From: Escherichia phage vB_Eco_BGP
Strand: one strand, 5' to 3'
Sequence record: OZ035849
Length of the DNA: 64,000 nt
The translations under genes were made by a program, and so were the position numbers. Positions 2,781 to 18,980 of this stretch are shown here, in pieces (the first letter of the stretch is position 1; every line of letters begins with the position of its first letter). Below the pieces are notes generated by a model. That model was not told where the DNA came from and made no database searches. It saw only the letters and a list, made by a program, of their open reading frames with translations.

Positions 2781-5700
2781 TTATTCAACCCATTCAAATT
2801 TAACCGTTTTATTCACTGGGTCAGGAATAATGCGAACATTACCAATTCGTAAGAAATCACGAATAGTAAGATTCCCCATTGTAGCATTATCAGATGGTAA
2901 AGCACCGATATCAGACGGCTGAGGAGGGTTACCTCCATCAAATACCTGAACAAAACTTGACCAAGAGTTTTTGGTTTTCTGCCATGTACGTGTCCAGCGA
3001 GTGGTACGTGCTTCTGGAGTCGTTGGATAAGTAATCCAATCTTGGTAAAGCGAATCAAGTGTGTTACCAAACTGAGTCAATGTACCAGGAGATTTAACTT
3101 CTTCGCCACGTTCTAAGTATGGAAGCCCAGTCACTTCATTAGTTTTTTCAACCATTTTAAAATAACCTGGGAACTGGTTATAAGTAGCTGAATCATTAAT
3201 ATCGATTGACCAGAATCCTACAGTATCAGACGTTGGCGCACGGGTATATAAGTCAGATGTTTTAGTGCCCTGAGAACGAATTCTCGAGTTAACAGTTAAA
3301 CCACCTGAATTTATAGTAGCACCTTTGGCAATGATTAAGCTTTCACCAATCGTTACTTGACCAGATGCATTATTAATAGCTAAAGGACGTAATCCATTAA
3401 ATCCGCCAGTCTGATCACCCGATGCAGTAAGCATAAAATAGGTGTTAGCAGCATCATTGCGAATAAAGAATCCATAGTCGCCATTTATTGCTCTGAAAGC
3501 ATTTGCAGACTTGCTGATGAATTCACCATTAGCAGTAACTGAACTACCAAATGTTGCAACGCCGTTCGCATTCAAAGAACCCGAAGCATTAACATTTATT
3601 GGCATTACAGTACCATTGATACTAAACGTTATATTCCCAGCTTTATTGCGTTGAGAATAAAAGTGATTAGACGTTTCATCACCAACTTCAAATACAGTAG
3701 AACGCATTGTATCTGAACCGCCACCAAACTGATTTCCCCAAACTCTGATAGTCATCGTCTGCGCTGGGTTAGTTCCAGTTTGAGGTCCTTTCTCAAAAAT
3801 CAGACGAGTTGCCGTTCCAGTATTAGAAATAGTTAATGTGCTGTTTGCCGAAACTGATCCGCCAAACGTAGCAGTACTAGATGATACAAGAGGGGCACTC
3901 AGATTCGTTTGTTGAGTTAAGGTTAGTGAACCATTAACTGTCTGTGCAATATCCCTACGAATGAACTGAGATGAATCTAGACCATCCAATAAATTTGTAT
4001 CAGCAGCTTTTGCTTTTAATGGCAAATAATTTGCTAATACACGGTTTAATTCATATGGTGATACTGCATAGCTGTTTTTCTCGTATAGCTCTAAGTCCTG
4101 CGTAGAACCAGCTGTATCATTACCAACGAATGTAATTGAACCAGATGAAGTTTTAACAAAGCCTCTTATCGCAGTAGTAGCTGCCCAAGTAGGTTCACTC
4201 TGCACAATCCATTTTAAATTTTTTGGAGATACAGCAGTATTTGCTGATGTTCCAGTCACAGTTTCAGACTGAGTTGCAACTTTAATAACACCTTCTTGCG
4301 ATTCGGTAGATTTAGTACCTAAAAGCTTTTTAGGAGTTATTAAAACATTATCTAATGTTCCTGCAGCAGCTTCAACCTGTGTAGCTACACGAAGTGTACC
4401 ACGCTGTGTCTCATTTGCTTCAAGAATATTAAGGGTATAATGGTCCCAGAGAGTTCCTGATTCAACTAATCCAGATAGAGCAACAACAGAAGTACGATCA
4501 GTACTATTAAATCTAGTTTTAATTTTTAATGGTGTAGAGATACGAGTATCGTCGACGCCTGCGTCGAATTCAACTTGTGTAGCAATTTCAGCTATACCAC
4601 TTAAACTTTCAGTTGCTCTACGGTCATTTAAAGTTTTAGGAGTGACTGCACGAGTATAATCAGTTCCTGTATTAACTTCACTTTGTGTAGCAATTTCAAT
4701 TAAACCAATTCTTCCATCAGTTGATGTCTTTTTATGTAACGTTTCTGGCGTTACAACAGCATTTGCCCATCCTTCCTGACTTTGTCCAGCAATTACTTCA
4801 CTTTCAACTGCTAAAATTACTGCACCTTGCTGTGTTGGAGTAGCTTTATACTGATCCAAAGCTTTAGGTGAAACAACTAAATTATTAGTGTTTTTATTAT
4901 AAACATTCGTACCATTTAATTCACGACTAGAAGCTGGAGTAGCACCTGCAGTAGATACAAAAGTTACAATACCAGATAATGATTCAGAACCTTGGCGAGC
5001 TTGAAGCTTTTTAGGAGTGATGATTGTAGTATCATCAGTACCTGTATTAGTTTCCTGCTGCGTAGCAATTTCAGCAACACCTCTACGAGTTTCTGTAGCA
5101 GTTCTTTCATTCAGCTTTTTAGGAGTAATGATAAGGTCATCTGCAAAAGAGAATGTGGTGTTCTGATTCACTTGAGCAGTAGTTGCTATTCTTGCGATAC
5201 CTCTACGAGTTTCAGTAGCAGTACGATTAGCTAATGTTTCTGGAGTAATTGCTAATTCTTTTTGTGGAGAATTTTCTAAATCGACATTAGCTTGAGCTTG
5301 TGTAGCTAAAGCAATTACGCCTAATCTTGCTCTAGTAGAATCATTTAAAGAGTCTACTCTTTCTACAGTTGGAACGTTTTGCTGTACAACCCAGTATTTT
5401 CCATCAGAATCTTCTATATAAGCAAGCTGTAAAACTGGAACATAATTAGTTTCACCGTTAAAAACTAATTCTTGAACAGTTACCCATTTAGTTTCAGGCG
5501 GATATTCTGAACGTTTTGGGAATTGCAGCAATTGAACTGAAGAAGCAATTTTATCTTCGCCCGCAGCTTTGATTTTAACTGTTTGTCCTTTTCTCATGTA
5601 ATTCATGGAAATTTTAACAGTATCACCAACAGAAATATTAGTTGGAAGCTGAAGCTCAATTGTTTGAGTTGTTCCGTTATTCGCACCAAATACCATGACT

Positions 5701-6650
5701 TCTTCGTTTGGACGAATATTAGAATTAGTCGTTATAATGCGTAAACGTGCTTTACTATCCCCGTCAAACAATCTCCACAATTTCTCATTATCATCAAACA
5801 TCAAGAAACCGTCAATCGATGTACGGCCTTCAATGGAATGAGTTCCAACTTCTTGTACTGAAGTCGTTTCATCGTATGTAGTAACAATTGTATGATAAAG
5901 TGGATTCAGTTTATCTAAATCAACGAAATTAATAATATCGCCATGATTAGCAAATCTTGGAAGTTTAACATTAATTGGTGCAGCAGAAGTAAATCTACGT
6001 ACGATAAAATCATTTGATTGCGCTTGATAAGTATTCGCTGGTGTTACAACTACAGCTTCTCTACTATAATCAGCAACATACATTTGCCACAGACGATTAC
6101 TAAAAATTAAAACTAGCTGTGACTTTGGATGAGTCATTAGTACTGAACGTACTTGCTCGCCTCTGAAGTTTACAATACTTTGCACCGGAGCTACAATTAA
6201 AACTTGGTTAACTCCAGGTTTTCCTCCAATATCTTGGAGAACGATAGTATCACCATCAATTGGGGTAGATGGTAAAGTAAATGTAATATCATTACCAGCT
6301 GCGGTGTTAACCGAAATAGCTTCACCAGATTTTAATTGATATGAACCAGATGAAACCGTAATCCAGTTAGCATCGGTACGTAATGCTCTCCAGCGTCCGC
6401 TATTAAAAGCTCCTGCCGGTTTTGGAATATCATTTATAGCAGCCCAAAAGCGGTTATCATAAATGATTACAAAATCTTTTAAATATCCACGAGTTGGATC
6501 GTATTGTTGAACTGTGTTTTCTTGAATTAAGTAATCAACGTTAACACCGTCAGTTCCTACGGTACGATCAGCTAAAGCTACGTTGATTATTTTATCACCA
6601 CCTGCGTCCAGACCGTCTTCTGCTCTGAACTTTCTTTTAATCTCGGCCAT
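2781..6650 (-). CDS. 34: long tail fiber proximal subunit gp34
   Basis: ORF track 1289 aa, identical length to T4 gp34; beta-rich repetitive fiber sequence; late promoter upstream. Confidence 0.95.
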   Translation of the reverse strand: MAEIKRKFRAEDGLDAGGDKIINVALADRTVGTDGVNVDYLIQENTVQQYDPTRGYLKDFVIIYDNRFWAAINDIPKPAGAFNSGRWRALRTDANWITVSSGSYQLKSGEAISVNTAAGNDITFTLPSTPIDGDTIVLQDIGGKPGVNQVLIVAPVQSIVNFRGEQVRSVLMTHPKSQLVLIFSNRLWQMYVADYSREAVVVTPANTYQAQSNDFIVRRFTSAAPINVKLPRFANHGDIINFVDLDKLNPLYHTIVTTYDETTSVQEVGTHSIEGRTSIDGFLMFDDNEKLWRLFDGDSKARLRIITTNSNIRPNEEVMVFGANNGTTQTIELQLPTNISVGDTVKISMNYMRKGQTVKIKAAGEDKIASSVQLLQFPKRSEYPPETKWVTVQELVFNGETNYVPVLQLAYIEDSDGKYWVVQQNVPTVERVDSLNDSTRARLGVIALATQAQANVDLENSPQKELAITPETLANRTATETRRGIARIATTAQVNQNTTFSFADDLIITPKKLNERTATETRRGVAEIATQQETNTGTDDTTIITPKKLQARQGSESLSGIVTFVSTAGATPASSRELNGTNVYNKNTNNLVVSPKALDQYKATPTQQGAVILAVESEVIAGQSQEGWANAVVTPETLHKKTSTDGRIGLIEIATQSEVNTGTDYTRAVTPKTLNDRRATESLSGIAEIATQVEFDAGVDDTRISTPLKIKTRFNSTDRTSVVALSGLVESGTLWDHYTLNILEANETQRGTLRVATQVEAAAGTLDNVLITPKKLLGTKSTESQEGVIKVATQSETVTGTSANTAVSPKNLKWIVQSEPTWAATTAIRGFVKTSSGSITFVGNDTAGSTQDLELYEKNSYAVSPYELNRVLANYLPLKAKAADTNLLDGLDSSQFIRRDIAQTVNGSLTLTQQTNLSAPLVSSSTATFGGSVSANSTLTISNTGTATRLIFEKGPQTGTNPAQTMTIRVWGNQFGGGSDTMRSTVFEVGDETSNHFYSQRNKAGNITFSINGTVMPINVNASGSLNANGVATFGSSVTANGEFISKSANAFRAINGDYGFFIRNDAANTYFMLTASGDQTGGFNGLRPLAINNASGQVTIGESLIIAKGATINSGGLTVNSRIRSQGTKTSDLYTRAPTSDTVGFWSIDINDSATYNQFPGYFKMVEKTNEVTGLPYLERGEEVKSPGTLTQFGNTLDSLYQDWITYPTTPEARTTRWTRTWQKTKNSWSSFVQVFDGGNPPQPSDIGALPSDNATMGNLTIRDFLRIGNVRIIPDPVNKTVKFEWVE

Positions 6651-12687: not shown

Positions 12688-13548
12688 ATGAAACAATACC
12701 AAGATTTAATTAAAGACATTTTTGAAAATGGCTATGAAACCGATGACCGAACAGGCACAGGAACAATTGCTTTGTTCGGTACTAAATTGCGTTGGGATTT
12801 AACAAAAGGTTTTCCTGCAGTAACAACTAAAAAGCTCGCCTGGAATGCATGCATTGCTGAGCTTCTATGGTTTATTTCCGGTTCTACCAATGTTAATGAT
12901 TTACGTCTTCGCACTCATGGCAGTCTTATTCAAGGTAAAACTATTTGGGACGATAACTATGAAAACCAAGCTAAAGACCTAGGATATCATAGTGGTGAAC
13001 TTGGTCCTATATACGGTAAACAATGGCGTGATTTCGGTGGTGTGGATCAATTAGTTGAAACTATTGATCGTATTAAAAAATTACCAACTGATCGACGTCA
13101 AATCGTTTCAGCATGGAATCCAGCTGAAATCAATCAAATGGCATTACCGCCCTGTCATATGTTCTATCAGTTTAATGTGCGTAATGGTTATCTTGATTTA
13201 CAATGGTACCAAAGAAGTGTAGATGTTTTCTTGGGATTGCCATTCAACATTGCCTCGTACGCTGCCTTGACGCATATTGTGGCTAAGATGTGTAATCTTA
13301 TCCCAGGAGATTTGATATTTTCTGGTGGTAATACTCACATCTATATGAATCATACTGAGCAATGTAAAGAAATTTTACGTCGTGAGCCTAAAGAACTGTG
13401 TGAACTTAAAATTGATTGGCCTATAGAGTTTGGAAATTGTGACACCGAAACACAGCTTTACTGGTTAACTGAATACATGAAACCGAAAGATTTTATCCTT
13501 GAAAATTATGAATCGCATCCAGCAATTAAAGGGAAAATGGCAATATGA
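12688..13548 (+). CDS. td: thymidylate synthase, uninterrupted (no intron)
   Basis: 286 aa continuous [29 protein letters not shown]...; active-site region PCHMFYQF present; same length as spliced T4 TS. Confidence 0.95.
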
Positions 13549-13808: not shown

Positions 13809-14088
13809 ATACAAATCCGACTTTGATGTTAATATTCACCGCGGTACATTTTGGGGAAATTACGTCGGTAAAGATGCTGGCAGCCGGGAGGCTGCCATTG
13901 AATTATTCAAAAAAGATTTTATACGTCGAATTAAATCCGGAGAAATAACTAAAGCACATTTAGAGCCTTTACGTGGAATGAGGCTAGGATGCACATGTAA
14001 ACCAAAGCCGTGTCATGGTGATATAATAGCTCATATAGTTAACCGATTGTTTAAAGACGATTTTCAAGTTGAGGACTTATGCAATTAA
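13762..14088 (+). CDS. hypothetical protein with Cys/His cluster ([11 protein letters not shown])
   Basis: 108 aa ORF immediately upstream of nrdA; start uncertain. Confidence 0.6.
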
Positions 14089-16343
14089 TTAATGTTATCA
14101 AAAGTAGTGGTGTTTCTCAGAGCTTTGACCCACAAAAAATTATTAAAGTTTTATCTTGGGCAGCTGAAGGAACATCAGTAGATCCTTATGAATTATATGA
14201 AAATATTAAATCTTATCTCCGTGATGGAATGACAACTGATGATATTCAGACTATTGTCATTAAGGCCGCTGCGAATTCTATTTCGGTTGAAGAGCCTGAT
14301 TATCAATATGTAGCTGCACGCTGTTTAATGTTTGCTCTTCGTAAGCATGTTTATGGACAGTATGAACCACGTTCATTTATTGACCATATTTCTTATTGTG
14401 TAAATGAAGGTAAATACGACCCTGAATTATTGTCAAAATATTCAGCAGAAGAAATTACATTTTTAGAATCAAAAATTAAGCACGAACGGGATATGGAATT
14501 TACTTATTCCGGGGCGATGCAATTAAAAGAAAAATATCTAGTTAAAGATAAAACCACTGGTCAAATTTATGAAACTCCACAGTTTGCATTTATGGCTATT
14601 GGAATGGCATTGCATCAAGATGAACCTGTTGATAGATTAAAACATGTTATCCGTTTTTATGAAGCAGTATCAACCCGACAGATTTCATTGCCAACTCCTA
14701 TTATGGCTGGTTGTCGTACTCCGACTCGACAGTTCAGTTCATGTGTTGTTATTGAGGCAGGTGATTCATTAAAGTCTATCAATAAGGCTTCCGCTTCAAT
14801 TGTTGAATATATCTCTAAACGCGCTGGAATTGGTATTAACGTTGGTATGATTCGTGCTGAAGGTTCTAAGATTGGCATGGGTGAAGTACGCCATACTGGT
14901 GTTATTCCTTTTTGGAAACATTTTCAGACTGCTGTTAAATCATGCTCACAGGGTGGAATTCGTGGCGGCGCTGCTACTGCTTATTATCCTATTTGGCATT
15001 TGGAAGTTGAAAATCTTCTCGTTTTGAAAAATAACAAAGGCGTAGAAGAAAACCGCATTCGTCATATGGATTATGGTGTTCAACTGAATGATCTAATGAT
15101 GGAACGTTTTGGAAAGAACGACTACATTACTTTGTTCAGTCCGCATGAAATGGGTGGCGAGCTTTATTATTCTTATTTTAAAGACCAAGACCGTTTCCGT
15201 GAATTATACGAAGCAGCAGAAAAAGACCCTAATATTCGTAAAAAGCGCATTAAAGCCCGTGAACTATTTGAATTGCTCATGACTGAACGCTCAGGAACAG
15301 CAAGGATTTATGTGCAGTTCATTGATAATACGAATAACTATACTCCATTTATTCGTGAAAAGGCACCTATTCGTCAGAGTAACTTGTGCTGTGAAATTGC
15401 TATTCCAACAAATGATGTGAATAGTCCTGATGCTGAAATTGGATTGTGTACTCTCTCTGCATTCGTACTGGATAATTTTGACTGGCAAGACCAAGATAAA
15501 ATTAATGAATTAGCAGAAGTTCAAGTTCGCGCTCTTGATAATCTGTTGGATTACCAAGGATATCCAGTTCCTGAAGCAGAAAAAGCTAAAAAGCGTCGTA
15601 ACCTTGGTGTAGGTGTTACTAACTATGCAGCTTGGCTGGCAAGTAACTTTGCTTCTTATGAAGATGCTAACGATTTAACACATGAACTATTTGAGAGATT
15701 ACAGTATGGACTCATTAAAGCATCCATTAAGCTCGCCAAAGAAAAAGGACCTTGCGAATATTATTCAGACACTCGTTGGTCTCGAGGCGAATTACCTATC
15801 GACTGGTACAATAAAAAGATTGACCAAATCGCAGCTCCAAAATACGTTTGTGACTGGTCGTCGCTGCGGGAAGACCTTAAGCTCTTTGGCATCCGTAATA
15901 GCACATTATCAGCACTTATGCCATGTGAGTCATCTTCCCAAGTTTCTAACAGTACAAATGGTATCGAGCCTCCACGTGGACCAGTCTCTGTTAAAGAATC
16001 AAAAGAGGGTTCCTTTAATCAAGTCGTGCCCAATATTGAGCATAACATAGACCTCTATGATTATACGTGGAAATTAGCTAAGAAAGGTAATAAACCTTAT
16101 CTTACGCAAGTAGCTATTATGCTTAAATGGGTATGTCAATCAGCTTCAGCGAATACATACTATGACCCGCAGATTTTTCCAAAAGGAAAGGTTCCAATGT
16201 CAATAATGATTGATGATATGCTATACGGATGGTATTATGGCATTAAAAATTTCTATTATCATAATACCCGTGATGGTTCTGGTACTGATGATTATGAAAT
16301 AGAAACTCCAAAAGCTGAAGATTGTTCATCCTGTAAATTATGA
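14079..16343 (+). CDS. nrdA: aerobic ribonucleotide reductase large subunit
   Basis: 754 aa, same length as T4 NrdA; ATP-cone N-terminus; SD GAGGA. Confidence 0.96.
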   Translation: MQLINVIKSSGVSQSFDPQKIIKVLSWAAEGTSVDPYELYENIKSYLRDGMTTDDIQTIVIKAAANSISVEEPDYQYVAARCLMFALRKHVYGQYEPRSFIDHISYCVNEGKYDPELLSKYSAEEITFLESKIKHERDMEFTYSGAMQLKEKYLVKDKTTGQIYETPQFAFMAIGMALHQDEPVDRLKHVIRFYEAVSTRQISLPTPIMAGCRTPTRQFSSCVVIEAGDSLKSINKASASIVEYISKRAGIGINVGMIRAEGSKIGMGEVRHTGVIPFWKHFQTAVKSCSQGGIRGGAATAYYPIWHLEVENLLVLKNNKGVEENRIRHMDYGVQLNDLMMERFGKNDYITLFSPHEMGGELYYSYFKDQDRFRELYEAAEKDPNIRKKRIKARELFELLMTERSGTARIYVQFIDNTNNYTPFIREKAPIRQSNLCCEIAIPTNDVNSPDAEIGLCTLSAFVLDNFDWQDQDKINELAEVQVRALDNLLDYQGYPVPEAEKAKKRRNLGVGVTNYAAWLASNFASYEDANDLTHELFERLQYGLIKASIKLAKEKGPCEYYSDTRWSRGELPIDWYNKKIDQIAAPKYVCDWSSLREDLKLFGIRNSTLSALMPCESSSQVSNSTNGIEPPRGPVSVKESKEGSFNQVVPNIEHNIDLYDYTWKLAKKGNKPYLTQVAIMLKWVCQSASANTYYDPQIFPKGKVPMSIMIDDMLYGWYYGIKNFYYHNTRDGSGTDDYEIETPKAEDCSSCKL

Positions 16344-16387
16344 TATAATGTGACTCATGGACGAGTCACTAACAAATGAGAAATAAT

Positions 16388-17179
16388 ATGAAATACTGTT
16401 CGGCAATAACCTACCCAGGTTCAAAACACAAATACATGGATTTTATTAATAGATTCGTATTGGGCTTTGATGATAATATAGTTTTAGATGCCTTTTGTGG
16501 CGGCCTCGGATTTTCTATGAATTGTGGTCGCCGTGTTGAGTGTAATGATATTAATTTTCATCTTATTAATATGTATAACAAGATGAAAGAGTCTTCATTT
16601 AATGATATACTCCAAATCATTGATGATTTTGGTTTAAATGACGTGGACCCTAAACCATTTTATTCTCTAGCAAAAGAATATGATAAAACCAAAAACGGGC
16701 TATATTTATATGTTCTGCATTTATTTGCATTCAGTTCGATGTTAAAATTTTCTAAAGATGATAAGTATATAGCTTCTTTTGCAAATAGAGCCAAATATTC
16801 TAGAACTTCTTTTAATAAATCACAACAAGATAAATTCGCAGCTTTTAAAAATCGTCAACATTTGTTAAGTTTTTCAAATAAATCATTCAGAGATTTAGAT
16901 TTTGAAAACAAGAACTTATTTATCGACCCACCATATCTTTCTACTAAATTTAAATATTCAGGGTGGGAAGAAAAGGATGAATTAGAATTATTAGATAAAA
17001 TTAAACGATCAAAGTCTAAATTTATTATTACTAATAATCTATCAGATGATATTGATAATAACATTCTAAAAGATTGGGCCCTTTCTAATAATTTCAAAAT
17101 TGAATATTTTAAAACCAGATACCAAAAAATATCAAAAGGCGTATCATTTCAGACTGAAGTGCTTATACATAATATGTGA
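16388..17179 (+). CDS. Dam-family DNA N6-adenine methyltransferase (putative)
   Basis: Motifs AITYPGSK, FCGGLGF, IDPPYL in the same order as T4 and E. coli Dam; alternative ATG at 16376. Confidence 0.75.
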   Translation: MKYCSAITYPGSKHKYMDFINRFVLGFDDNIVLDAFCGGLGFSMNCGRRVECNDINFHLINMYNKMKESSFNDILQIIDDFGLNDVDPKPFYSLAKEYDKTKNGLYLYVLHLFAFSSMLKFSKDDKYIASFANRAKYSRTSFNKSQQDKFAAFKNRQHLLSFSNKSFRDLDFENKNLFIDPPYLSTKFKYSGWEEKDELELLDKIKRSKSKFIITNNLSDDIDNNILKDWALSNNFKIEYFKTRYQKISKGVSFQTEVLIHNM

Positions 17180-17213
17180 TTAAATATTTAAACCTATAAT
17201 AAGAGAGAATAAT

Positions 17214-17889
17214 ATGTCTACAGTTTTTAATACAAATCCAGTTGATGTTTTAAAAGAACCTATGTTTTTTGGTTCAGGTCTTGGTATTGCACGTTATGAT
17301 ATTCAACGGCATCGAGTATTTGAAGAACTTACTGAGAAGTCCTTATCATTTTTCTGGCGTCCTGAAGAAGTAAACTTAATGATGGATGCTGCACAATTTA
17401 ATAAGCTTCCTCAGTATCAGCAAAATATTTTTACTAATAACCTGAAGTATCAATCACTTTTGGATAGCATTCAGGGTCGTGCGCCATCTGCTGTACTTAT
17501 GTCATTAATTTCAGACCCAAGCCTTGATACATGGGTTGCTACATGGACTTTTAGTGAAACTATTCACAGTCGTTCATATACTCATATCATGCGAAATCTT
17601 TATACTGATCCGTCAAAGGTATTTGATGAGATTGTATTAGATGAAGCTATCATGAAACGTGCTGAATCCATTGGGCGTTATTATGATGATGTTCTGATTA
17701 AAACCCGTGAATGGGAAAATGCTAAAGAATTTGTAGAACTAGCTAAAGAATCTCCTGATGCTGTCTTTCGTTTAAACCGAGCTATTAAACAAGAAGCCGA
17801 AGCTAAACGTGCTTTAATGAAATCTCTTTACCTCTGTTTGCACGTTATTAATGCCTTAGAAGCTATTCGTTTTTATGTATCTTTTGCGT
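17214..17889 (+). CDS. nrdB: ribonucleotide reductase small subunit, exon 1
   Basis: MSTVFNTNPVDVLKEP... reads to ...EAIRFYVSFA then hits a stop; conserved R2 sequence resumes in frame 1.09 kb downstream. Confidence 0.9.
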
Positions 17890-18980
17890 AAAATGCGCCT
17901 TTAAACGGTAACGTTTATCGAAAACTCCTTTAATTGCTGGAAAGTCCTTTATAGGAAAACTAGCAGCCAAGGTTTTGCTTGCACCTTTAATTAGTATAAT
18001 ATAAATATGATTATACTTTTAAGAGGATGCACAATTGAACTATAGAAAAATTTGGATAGATGCTAACGGACCTATACCTAAAGATTCCGATGGAAGAACA
18101 TACGAAATCCATCATAAAGACGGTAACCGTGAAAATAATGATTTAGATAATTTGATGTGCCTTTCTATACAGGAACATTATGATATACATTTAGCTCAAA
18201 AAGATTACCAGGCTTGTCATGCTATAAAGCTTAGAATGAAATATTCTCCTGAAGAAATTTCTGAATTAGCTTCTAAAGCCGCAAAATCTAGAGAAATCCA
18301 GATTTTTAATATCCCTGAAGTACGAGCTAAAAATATTGCCTCTATTAAATCTAAGATAGAAAATGGTACATTTCATCTTTTAGACGGTGAAATACAGCGT
18401 AAATCTAATTTAAATAGAGTTGCATTAGGTATACATAATTTTCAACAAGCTGAGCATATTGCAAAAGTTAAAGAACGCAATATTGCAGCTATAAAAGAAG
18501 GTACTCATGTATTTTGCGGTGGTAAAATGCAGTCAGAAACTCAATCAAAACGGGTAAATGACGGTTCACATCATTTCTTGTCAGAAGACCATAAGAAAAG
18601 AACATCAGCAAAAACATTAGAAATGGTTAAGAATGGGACCCATCCTGCACAAAAAGAAATCACATGTGATTTCTGCGGTCACATTGGTAAAGGTCCTGGA
18701 TTTTATCTAAAACATAATGACAGATGTAAATTAAATCCAAATAGAATTCAATTGAATTGTCCATATTGTGATAAGAAAGATTTATCACCATCAACATATA
18801 AACGATGGCACGGCGACAATTGCAAAGCAAGGTTCAACGACTAGTCTTCGGACGTAGGGTCAAGCGACTCGAAATGGGGAGAATCCCTCTGGGATTGTGA
18901 TATAGTCTGGTCTGCATAGTAATATGTAGCAGTTCATAAGAGAACGGGTTGAGAATTAGCGAGCTCAATCGAACATAACG
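17890..18980 (+). mobile_element. group I self-splicing intron in nrdB carrying an HNH homing endonuclease ORF
   Basis: Interrupts nrdB after a U (17889); ends in G (18980); joining exons restores frame (...SFA-C-TFNFHKNMEIMEGNAK...); contains HNH ORF; structured 3' segment. Confidence 0.85.
18035..18844 (+). CDS. intron-encoded HNH homing endonuclease, I-TevIII-like, full length
   Basis: 269 aa; HNH motif EIHHKDGNRENNDLDNLMCLSIQEHYDIH; C-terminal Cys-rich region CDFCGH...CPYCDKK; TTG start after SD AAGAGGA; TATAAATA just upstream. Confidence 0.85.
   Translation: MNYRKIWIDANGPIPKDSDGRTYEIHHKDGNRENNDLDNLMCLSIQEHYDIHLAQKDYQACHAIKLRMKYSPEEISELASKAAKSREIQIFNIPEVRAKNIASIKSKIENGTFHLLDGEIQRKSNLNRVALGIHNFQQAEHIAKVKERNIAAIKEGTHVFCGGKMQSETQSKRVNDGSHHFLSEDHKKRTSAKTLEMVKNGTHPAQKEITCDFCGHIGKGPGFYLKHNDRCKLNPNRIQLNCPYCDKKDLSPSTYKRWHGDNCKARFND

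Follow-up and report, generated by a model that had tools for sequence, protein, structure and literature searches.

The gap between nrdA and nrdB in the Escherichia phage vB_Eco_BGP (sequence record OZ035849; hereafter BGP) holds what we read as an intact, maintained orphan N6-adenine methyltransferase (MTase) of the T4 Dam branch. The gene sits on an 840-bp cassette in the slot known for mobE and hef, is probably a second methylase in BGP, and appears to have moved between T4-like genera; we give this reading as a whole a probability of about 70%. Work on DNA hypermodification, like work on homing-endonuclease mobility, takes the T-even phages as its reference system. Our analysis covered a 64,000-nucleotide stretch of BGP DNA, called the window throughout. 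The gene and its cofactor-binding and catalytic motifs are located as follows, with subtype A being the form found in the window and in phages CF-SP2 and fDHCT2, and subtype B that of phage 236Ecol005PP and others.

16388–17179, plus strand: D12-class (Dam-family, alpha-group) N6-adenine MTase gene of subtype A, 263 amino acids (aa), identified by Pfam, PHROG, the match to T4 Dam and the predicted fold.
16493–16510, plus strand: motif I, FCGGLG (residues 36–41), predicted to bind S-adenosylmethionine (AdoMet), from alignment with T4 Dam and E. coli Dam (EcoDam).
16925–16936, plus strand: catalytic motif IV, DPPY (residues 180–183), read from the translation.

An original prediction, made from the letters and a list of open reading frames (ORFs), had proposed a Dam-type MTase here with three hallmark motifs in canonical order. 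The ORF and all three blocks are present as claimed: SAITYPGSK, which contains K13, FCGGLGF (residues 36–42) and IDPPYL (residues 179–184). The profile search agrees on the family. Pfam PF02086 (MethyltransfD12) matches residues 9–245 over profile positions 1–251 of 253 with E=1e-19 and 71.7 bits, against a curated cut-off of 22 bits, and PHROG_56 ('DNA methyltransferase') matches with E=1.5e-25. The motif order is that of the alpha group, with FCGGLG at residues 36–41, a helical domain with hairpin at 57–140, and DPPY at 180–183. K13, FCGGLG and DPPY align with functional residues of T4 Dam and EcoDam and vary little or not at all across 116 family members: D180 and P182 show no variation, F36 and G38 none or almost none, and P181 and Y183 have a conservation of 90% or more.

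By sequence search of the Protein Data Bank (PDB), the T4 Dam entries were the sole solved structures reached (E=8e-30, ~31% identity), and neither EcoDam nor DpnM gave a match at E≤0.01. T4/T2 Dam (M.EcoT4Dam, a GATC orphan; PDB 1Q0S, 1YF3, 1YFJ and 1YFL) belongs to the same Pfam family, has the same motif order and is the best solved relative in both sequence and fold; the alignments put overall identity at 31–33%. An AlphaFold2 model, resting on a nine-sequence alignment, reached a predicted local distance difference test score of 85.4 and a predicted template modelling score of 0.85, and shows the Dam fold: a predicted Rossmann-like catalytic domain and a helical DNA-binding domain with a β-hairpin. 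The top Foldseek matches of the model were T4 Dam, with template modelling (TM) scores of 0.79–0.89, then EcoDam (0.69–0.75) and DpnM (0.73). With these last two GATC enzymes the protein shares the fold, the equivalent of EcoDam K9 and DPPY, but only ~17–21% identity. The reading frame is unbroken in more than 20 independent loci, and comparison with the CF-SP2 copy gives 45 synonymous and 14 non-synonymous codon differences. Judged by these comparisons, the gene looks intact, real, functional and selectively maintained.

An upstream in-frame ATG at 16376 would give a 267-aa alternative. The start conserved among relatives is 16388; the upstream ATG is ACG in subtype-B copies, and a GAGGAG Shine-Dalgarno sequence precedes the second ATG in the CF-SP2 copy. 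In the public BGP record (OZ035849.1), the 247-aa CAL1641203.1, 'hypothetical protein BGPTRB_144', equals residues 17–263 of the methylase exactly; this gene model (16436–17179) begins at an internal Met and loses the YPGSK segment, including the putative DNA-contacting Lys13. Two further BGP protein records equal to window proteins are Hoc (CAL1641315.1) and gp30.2 (CAL1641271.1). A few GenBank records already give the gene the label 'DNA adenine methylase', and we found no literature on the slot methylase gene. It appears to have been overlooked in both the BGP annotation and the published BGP study.

The cassette lies between two conserved flanks.

14079–16343, plus strand: nrdA, 754 aa, the left conserved flank; protein identical to CAL1641201.1, with 96–98% nucleotide identity to other Tequatrovirus nrdA genes.
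16374–17213, plus strand: the 840-bp methylase cassette, an insertion relative to the empty allele, defined by the junction sequences and alignment to phage phiD1.
17214–17891, plus strand: nrdB exon 1, the right conserved flank; an ORF 96.7% identical to phiD1.

The nrdA stop codon TGA occupies 16341–16343 and the nrdB ATG starts at 17214, with the methylase as one long ORF between them, so that the gene fills the nrdA–nrdB gap as had been predicted. The closest database relative of the flanks is phiD1 (97.9%), whose slot is a 51-bp spacer alone. Homology to this empty allele stops after ...GAGTCACTAAC (16373) and restarts at the nrdB ATG (17214), and the cassette takes the place of the 21-bp TATTAACTAAGAGGAAAATTT of phiD1. 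The replaced 21 bp held the original nrdB Shine-Dalgarno sequence; the cassette brings a new ribosome-binding site for nrdB. Its GC content is 25–31%, compared with 34–42% in the flanks. The ORF list shows no further ORF in the cassette, and Pfam finds the D12 MTase domain alone, with no nuclease domain. The cassette encodes no HNH or GIY-YIG enzyme and has the slot alone in common with free-standing homing endonucleases.

Two near-identical ribosome-binding-site and start segments bracket the cassette: GAGAAATAATATG at 16378–16390, belonging to the methylase, and GAGAGAATAATATG at 17203–17216, belonging to nrdB. A repeat finder detected no flanking direct repeats of 10 nt or more around the cassette, and no excision 'scar' allele occurs among 50,697 phage records. 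Excision through these similar segments or through direct repeats was therefore rejected.

The slot is occupied differently in different phages. T4 carries a truncated mobE together with nrdB.1, which agrees with the original prediction, where mobE was placed in this gap of T4; RB3 has a full-length mobE, and phage U5 has hef (AY262133). The ORF of the window is absent from T4, and the proposal of a different cargo at a known endonuclease slot holds. Among the 509 records matching the spacer, the slot is empty in 377 (~74% of Tequatrovirus records), and most of the rest have mobE or hef in it. Searched for at 80% nucleotide identity or more, the methylase was found in just seven of the 50,697 phage records. 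It occurs in about 1% of Tequatrovirus records and is in this respect much rarer than the mobE and hef cassettes, roughly a quarter of records having a non-empty slot. The seven carriers are CF-SP2 (Gelderlandvirus, a Salmonella phage), fDHCT2 (unclassified) and the Tequatroviruses 236Ecol005PP, EP02SG, T4_ev240, ECO07P2 and NR1. Klebsiella phage PhiKpNIH-6 (Marfavirus) carries a copy with 72% protein identity, and further copies occur in sewage and gut metagenome contigs; two scans of IMG/VR, one with the single protein and one with the clade alignment, found none. Wherever flanks are visible, in Tequatrovirus, Gelderlandvirus, Marfavirus-type and unclassified phages as well as metagenome contigs, the gene occupies this same nrdA–nrdB slot. 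Clustering of 1.84 billion representatives at 50% identity puts the clade in a single, isolated cluster, its next relative being 32% identical; at 90% identity, the clade falls into four clusters among 5.8 billion. By these sequence comparisons, the slot takes a third and rare kind of cargo besides mobE and hef, namely the methylase cassette.

One identical copy lies in the 'Shigella flexneri' assembly GCA_033635405.1, where contig ABOVAD010000001.1 (167,585 bp) is a complete T4-like phage genome; its proteins carry Shigella labels in NCBI.

Like the mobE and hef cassettes (Wilson & Edgell 2009, PMC2790892), the methylase cassette occupies this slot sporadically among close relatives. Dependence on the surrounding nrd transcription has been shown for mobE and would apply by analogy to the methylase. 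Unlike mobE and hef, the methylase cassette has no endonuclease gene and hence no activity by which to mobilise itself, nor does it contain an internal intrinsic terminator such as is present in all mobE genes (PMC2790892).

The history of the gene differs from that of its surroundings. At the nucleotide level, the window methylase is 91.5% identical to the CF-SP2 copy and 90.2% to that of fDHCT2, whereas identity to these two phages is 79–83% in nrdA and 78–82% in nrdB; for CF-SP2 by itself the values are 79–82% and 78%. Conversely, the other Tequatrovirus copies are only ~80% identical to it, though their nrdA genes are 96–97% identical. A methylase far closer to the copy of Gelderlandvirus CF-SP2 than the flanking nrdA is indicates cross-genus transfer. 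Within the gene, too, comparison of subtypes A and B shows a mosaic: nucleotides 481–705 are 91–92% identical, with third codon positions at 81–83%, compared with 71–78% and 48–70% for nucleotides 1–480. The Marfavirus-type lineage shows no high-identity block at nucleotides 481–705. The pattern suggests recombination inside the gene, separating a C-terminal catalytic block from an N-terminal half that holds the AdoMet-binding and target-recognition regions. An identical methylase protein occurs with differing combinations of td intron and nrdB intron, and the simplest explanation is cassette exchange through homologous recombination in the conserved nrd flanks.

The window spans the T4 map from about gene 34 to gene 20, and the gene 56/61 region lies outside it. 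In T4, dam is at 16846–17625, between genes 56 and 61, in line with the original prediction, which had placed it far from the slot. The slot gene departs from canonical T-even dam both in this locus and in its 31–33% identity to T4 Dam, and the Dam proteins of T2, T4 and phage Geo share a 90%-identity cluster separate from it. BGP, Geo and phage EL have been reported to carry a T4-like Dam gene (PMC13390438, 2026). Over 25 kb of the window, BGP is 98.5% identical to Geo, in agreement with the BGP–Geo identity published in PMC13390438. Geo has a 780-bp dam between genes 56 and 61, encoding a protein identical to T2 Dam, and an empty nrdA–nrdB slot; the T2-type Dam sequence is common to 177 contigs. 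On the basis of the published report and of this relative, the slot gene is probably a second Dam-family methylase in BGP.

Two small ORFs accompany the canonical dam locus. Directly 3′ of dam, a 186-aa ORF is found in Geo (2945–3505 of the Geo segment), EL, BGP, T2 and many Tequatroviruses; it has been called 'restriction enzyme-like' (PMC13390438). Between dam and gene 61, a small plus-strand ORF beginning MVQKLMALVNAIKGNK (~3240–3440 in the T4 segment) is kept in dam-less phages (~6196–6426), which makes the deletion or insertion of dam a clean single-gene polymorphism. The published analysis of BGP DNA modification covered the nrdD–rIIA region only.

What the slot enzyme might recognise can be approached through the hairpin that reads the target in its solved relatives.

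16730–16789, plus strand: target-recognition β-hairpin region, residues 115–134 (FSSMLKFSKDDKYIASFANR), from alignments to T4 Dam and EcoDam.

With T4/T2 Dam, likewise an orphan enzyme of T4-like phages, the protein has in common the N-terminal Lys (K13), the intercalating aromatic residue (F115, equivalent to T4 Dam F111), S116 and DPPY. It differs at K120 (16745–16747), which aligns with T4 Dam R116 and EcoDam R124, and at S130, which aligns with P126 and P134, respectively; the segment after the hairpin is six residues longer than that of T4 Dam, as it is in EcoDam. In EcoDam, the main discriminator is R124, which makes contact with the guanine in base pair four; the pair next to it is contacted by P134 and L122, Y119 intercalates, and K9, the equivalent of T4 Dam K11, is a base-contacting Lys (PMC4417163). 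Subtype B has Arg at the R116 position, and the Pro position is Ser or Ala across the clade. Of the 112 nearest cluster representatives, 94 have R and 4 have K in the Arg column, and Ser is common at the Pro column. Position 128 is Ala in the whole clade and Gly in 102 of 112 relatives. Between the subtypes, 9 of the 14 positions in residues 117–130 differ, compared with 43 of 249 elsewhere (Fisher p=2e-4); it is in the recognition hairpin that the subtypes diverge most.

The specificity of subtype A may thus not be GATC. The place of the slot gene as a second Dam-family enzyme in BGP speaks for a target other than plain GATC, and K120, the divergence of the hairpin and the coexistence of a T2-type Dam in BGP together make an altered or relaxed target plausible; we put its chance at roughly one in three. 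As a wider possibility, which we consider less likely than not, the slot may be a place for swappable methylation specificity. Subtypes A (Lys120, not GATC) and B (Arg) would then read different motifs, with target-recognition halves shuffled apart from the catalytic half. The cassettes would spread across T4-like genera through the nrd flanks with the help of MobE or I-TevIII breaks, and would equip phages such as BGP with a further, complementary tier of adenine methylation to counter the defences of the host.

Our preferred reading, an orphan second methylase, suggests the following course of events. The methylase would be transcribed together with nrdB, by read-through from nrdA or from a TATAAT element at the end of nrdA. 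The enzyme would methylate a short adenine-containing motif in phage DNA with AdoMet, by base flipping, and the methylation could further shield that DNA from restriction by the host or from other defences that sense DNA. The cassette would move among T4-like genera by homologous recombination in the conserved nrdA and nrdB flanks, and breaks made by homing endonucleases in nrdB may aid its transfer.

Several points weigh against this reading. The activity, target motif and role of the enzyme are predicted from sequence and model. The BGP dam is known from the text of PMC13390438 and from Geo (98.5–98.7% identical), not from BGP sequence, and the liquid chromatography–mass spectrometry study of BGP DNA, the sole BGP paper we found, is silent on methyladenine. 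Around the cassette we could not confidently assign a promoter, a MotA box or a terminator, and the exchange of the guanine-contacting Arg for Lys could make the enzyme weaker instead of giving it a new target. Furthermore, each of the seven database carriers gives a single tblastn place, that is, no canonical dam, and in T4_ev240 and 236Ecol005PP the gene 56–61 interval is ~270 bp with no dam. In such phages the slot gene may substitute for dam and methylate GATC. If the same held for BGP, the slot gene would be its only dam, a replaced or relocated equivalent of T4 Dam and not an extra enzyme, an account with which the Arg retained in subtype B and the position of T4 Dam as closest solved relative would agree. 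We nevertheless consider it unlikely. BGP is reported with a T4-like dam, and its close relative Geo has a Dam identical to that of T2. The dam-less 56–61 junction is in any case the majority state, in ~300 of 518 Tequatrovirus records (~58%; T6 is among the single-match records, with only 76% covered), so that seven dam-less carriers are weak evidence for complementarity. Strict complementarity with canonical dam was dropped accordingly, since a dam-less majority and a phage reported with both genes mean that the slot gene and dam do not strictly complement each other, and that the slot gene is no relocated dam. Of the two options raised in the original prediction, a second MTase or a relocated dam, the former is favoured by the published BGP dam, while the latter fails on the 31–33% identity to T4 Dam, too low for a relocated orthologue.

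Two further accounts question the function of the methylase rather than its number. As part of a selfish or defence pair, it could be the modification half, set against the restriction-enzyme-like neighbour of dam, MobE or I-TevIII, or it could have a regulatory role, like that of P1 Dam at pac, and none in anti-restriction. The presence of the restriction-enzyme-like ORF beside dam in BGP, Geo and EL and the location of the cassette at a homing-endonuclease hotspot adjoining the I-TevIII intron fit such a pairing; yet the cassette itself has no second ORF or nuclease domain, the nuclease-like ORF is present in Geo and EL, which lack the cassette, and most carriers have neither the intron nor mobE, which leaves the idea very unlikely. 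Most improbable, in our estimate, is an inactive or decaying passenger kept in place by its position between two essential genes and by the nrdB ribosome-binding site that it supplies, much as an nrdB promoter inside mobE has been argued to guard mobE from deletion (PMC2790892). The Lys in place of a conserved Arg and the clade-wide Ala at position 128 are what decay might produce, but a frame intact in so many loci, the conserved catalytic and cofactor motifs, the excess of synonymous changes and the confident T4 Dam-like model all speak for an enzyme under maintenance.

The left edge of the cassette adjoins a compact module in the spacer.

16341–16349, plus strand: TGATATAAT, in which an extended −10-like element (TGnTATAAT) overlaps the stop codon of nrdA, read from the sequence.
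16350–16369, plus strand: hairpin or palindrome with a 7-bp stem, GTGACTC ATGGAC GAGTCAC, with a folding energy of −10.7 kcal/mol and z = −2.98 against shuffles.

The hairpin exists where the original prediction had placed it, but it does not belong to the insertion: hairpin and preceding TATAAT both occur in empty-slot phages such as phiD1. The TATAAT (16344–16349 in the window) lies directly 5′ of the hairpin in all lineages; in CF-SP2 and fDHCT2 it falls outside the nrdA coding sequence and still directly precedes the hairpin. Marfavirus-type copies hold the stem by paired changes, from GACTC/GAGTC to GGCTC/GAGCC, with T·A replaced by A·T in PhiKpNIH-6. From this distribution, the hairpin clearly belongs to the ancestral nrdA–nrdB spacer and marks the left recombination edge. 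The hairpin lacks a U-tract, no terminator-like site was found and no Rfam family matched it; given this and its presence in empty alleles, a role as cassette part or as terminator was rejected.

The arrangement recalls the PeSL and PmSL modules (Arbiol 2010; Comeau 2014, PMC4122927), in which a promoter-like box and a stem-loop likewise mark the exact border of an ORF that has been inserted or replaced. Here, however, the stem-loop lies downstream of the −10 box, whereas it lies upstream of the promoter in the PeSLs of PST and T4. The TATAAT-plus-hairpin module is found at the left edge alone, so the cassette is not PeSL-bounded, and, unlike for a PeSL pair, we found neither a second copy of the module at the other side nor an excision scar allele. 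The TGATATAAT element is a candidate for the nrdB promoter of mobE-less phages. A transcript starting ~7 nt past the −10 box would begin inside the 5′ stem arm, so the hairpin could work either in nrdA read-through RNA or, at the DNA level, as a palindrome that covers the start site. The strict MotA pattern TGCTT-N(13–15)-TAnnnT has no match at the 3′ end of nrdA or of the methylase gene, and a MotA-dependent middle promoter was rejected on that ground. The promoter-like sequences present are limited to the TGnTATAAT element and, at 17160, a TGCTT with a poor −10 behind it.

Downstream of the cassette, nrdB is interrupted by an intron.

18035–18844, plus strand: full-length I-TevIII ORF in the nrdB group I intron, context outside the cassette; 268 of 269 residues identical to RB3 I-TevIII.

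Rfam Intron_gpI scores 33.9 bits (E=3.6e-6) at 18689–18929, under its gathering score of 50. The encoded I-TevIII differs from the active RB3 enzyme by D23Y alone, just before the EIHHKDGNRENN (HNH) segment, and TGCTTGCACCTTTAATTAGTATAAT at 17976–18000, just upstream of the ORF in the intron, is a match to a MotA box plus TATAAT, resembling a middle promoter. The original prediction had called a methylase beside an active homing-endonuclease intron an unusual pairing, and this did not survive comparison: the intron-interrupted nrdB occurs in only two of the more than 20 methylase loci, the window and one 2-kb metagenome contig. Judged by this distribution, the adjacency of the methylase to the I-TevIII intron is coincidental. 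A functional tie of the methylase to the intron or to mobE was rejected, since in most carriers nrdB has no intron and mobE is missing.

The td gene is uninterrupted in the window (286 aa, 12688–13548); Geo, CF-SP2 and several metagenome contigs with an identical methylase have the td intron with I-TevI. This difference among near-identical phages means that td intron, nrdB intron and methylase cassette assort independently. Codon 42 of nrdB is AAG (17337–17339), the form of mobE-less phages, and MobE is known to nick T2 nrdB at this codon (PMC2790892). Given this codon and the full-length I-TevIII, break-stimulated co-conversion could move or remove the cassette.

For the T4-like phages, these results mean that the classic mobE/hef slot also takes cargo other than endonucleases, namely a divergent Dam-like MTase that crosses genus boundaries and that, in at least one phage, BGP, is found where an ordinary dam has been reported as well. 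BGP, with the cassette, and Geo, with an empty slot and ~98.5% identity, form a natural pair for studying the part of a second methylase in evading restriction, BREX-type and other defences, and subtypes A and B offer a natural experiment in the evolution of the Dam recognition hairpin. The practical consequence is modest and concerns host-range prediction and the annotation of therapeutic T4-like phages.

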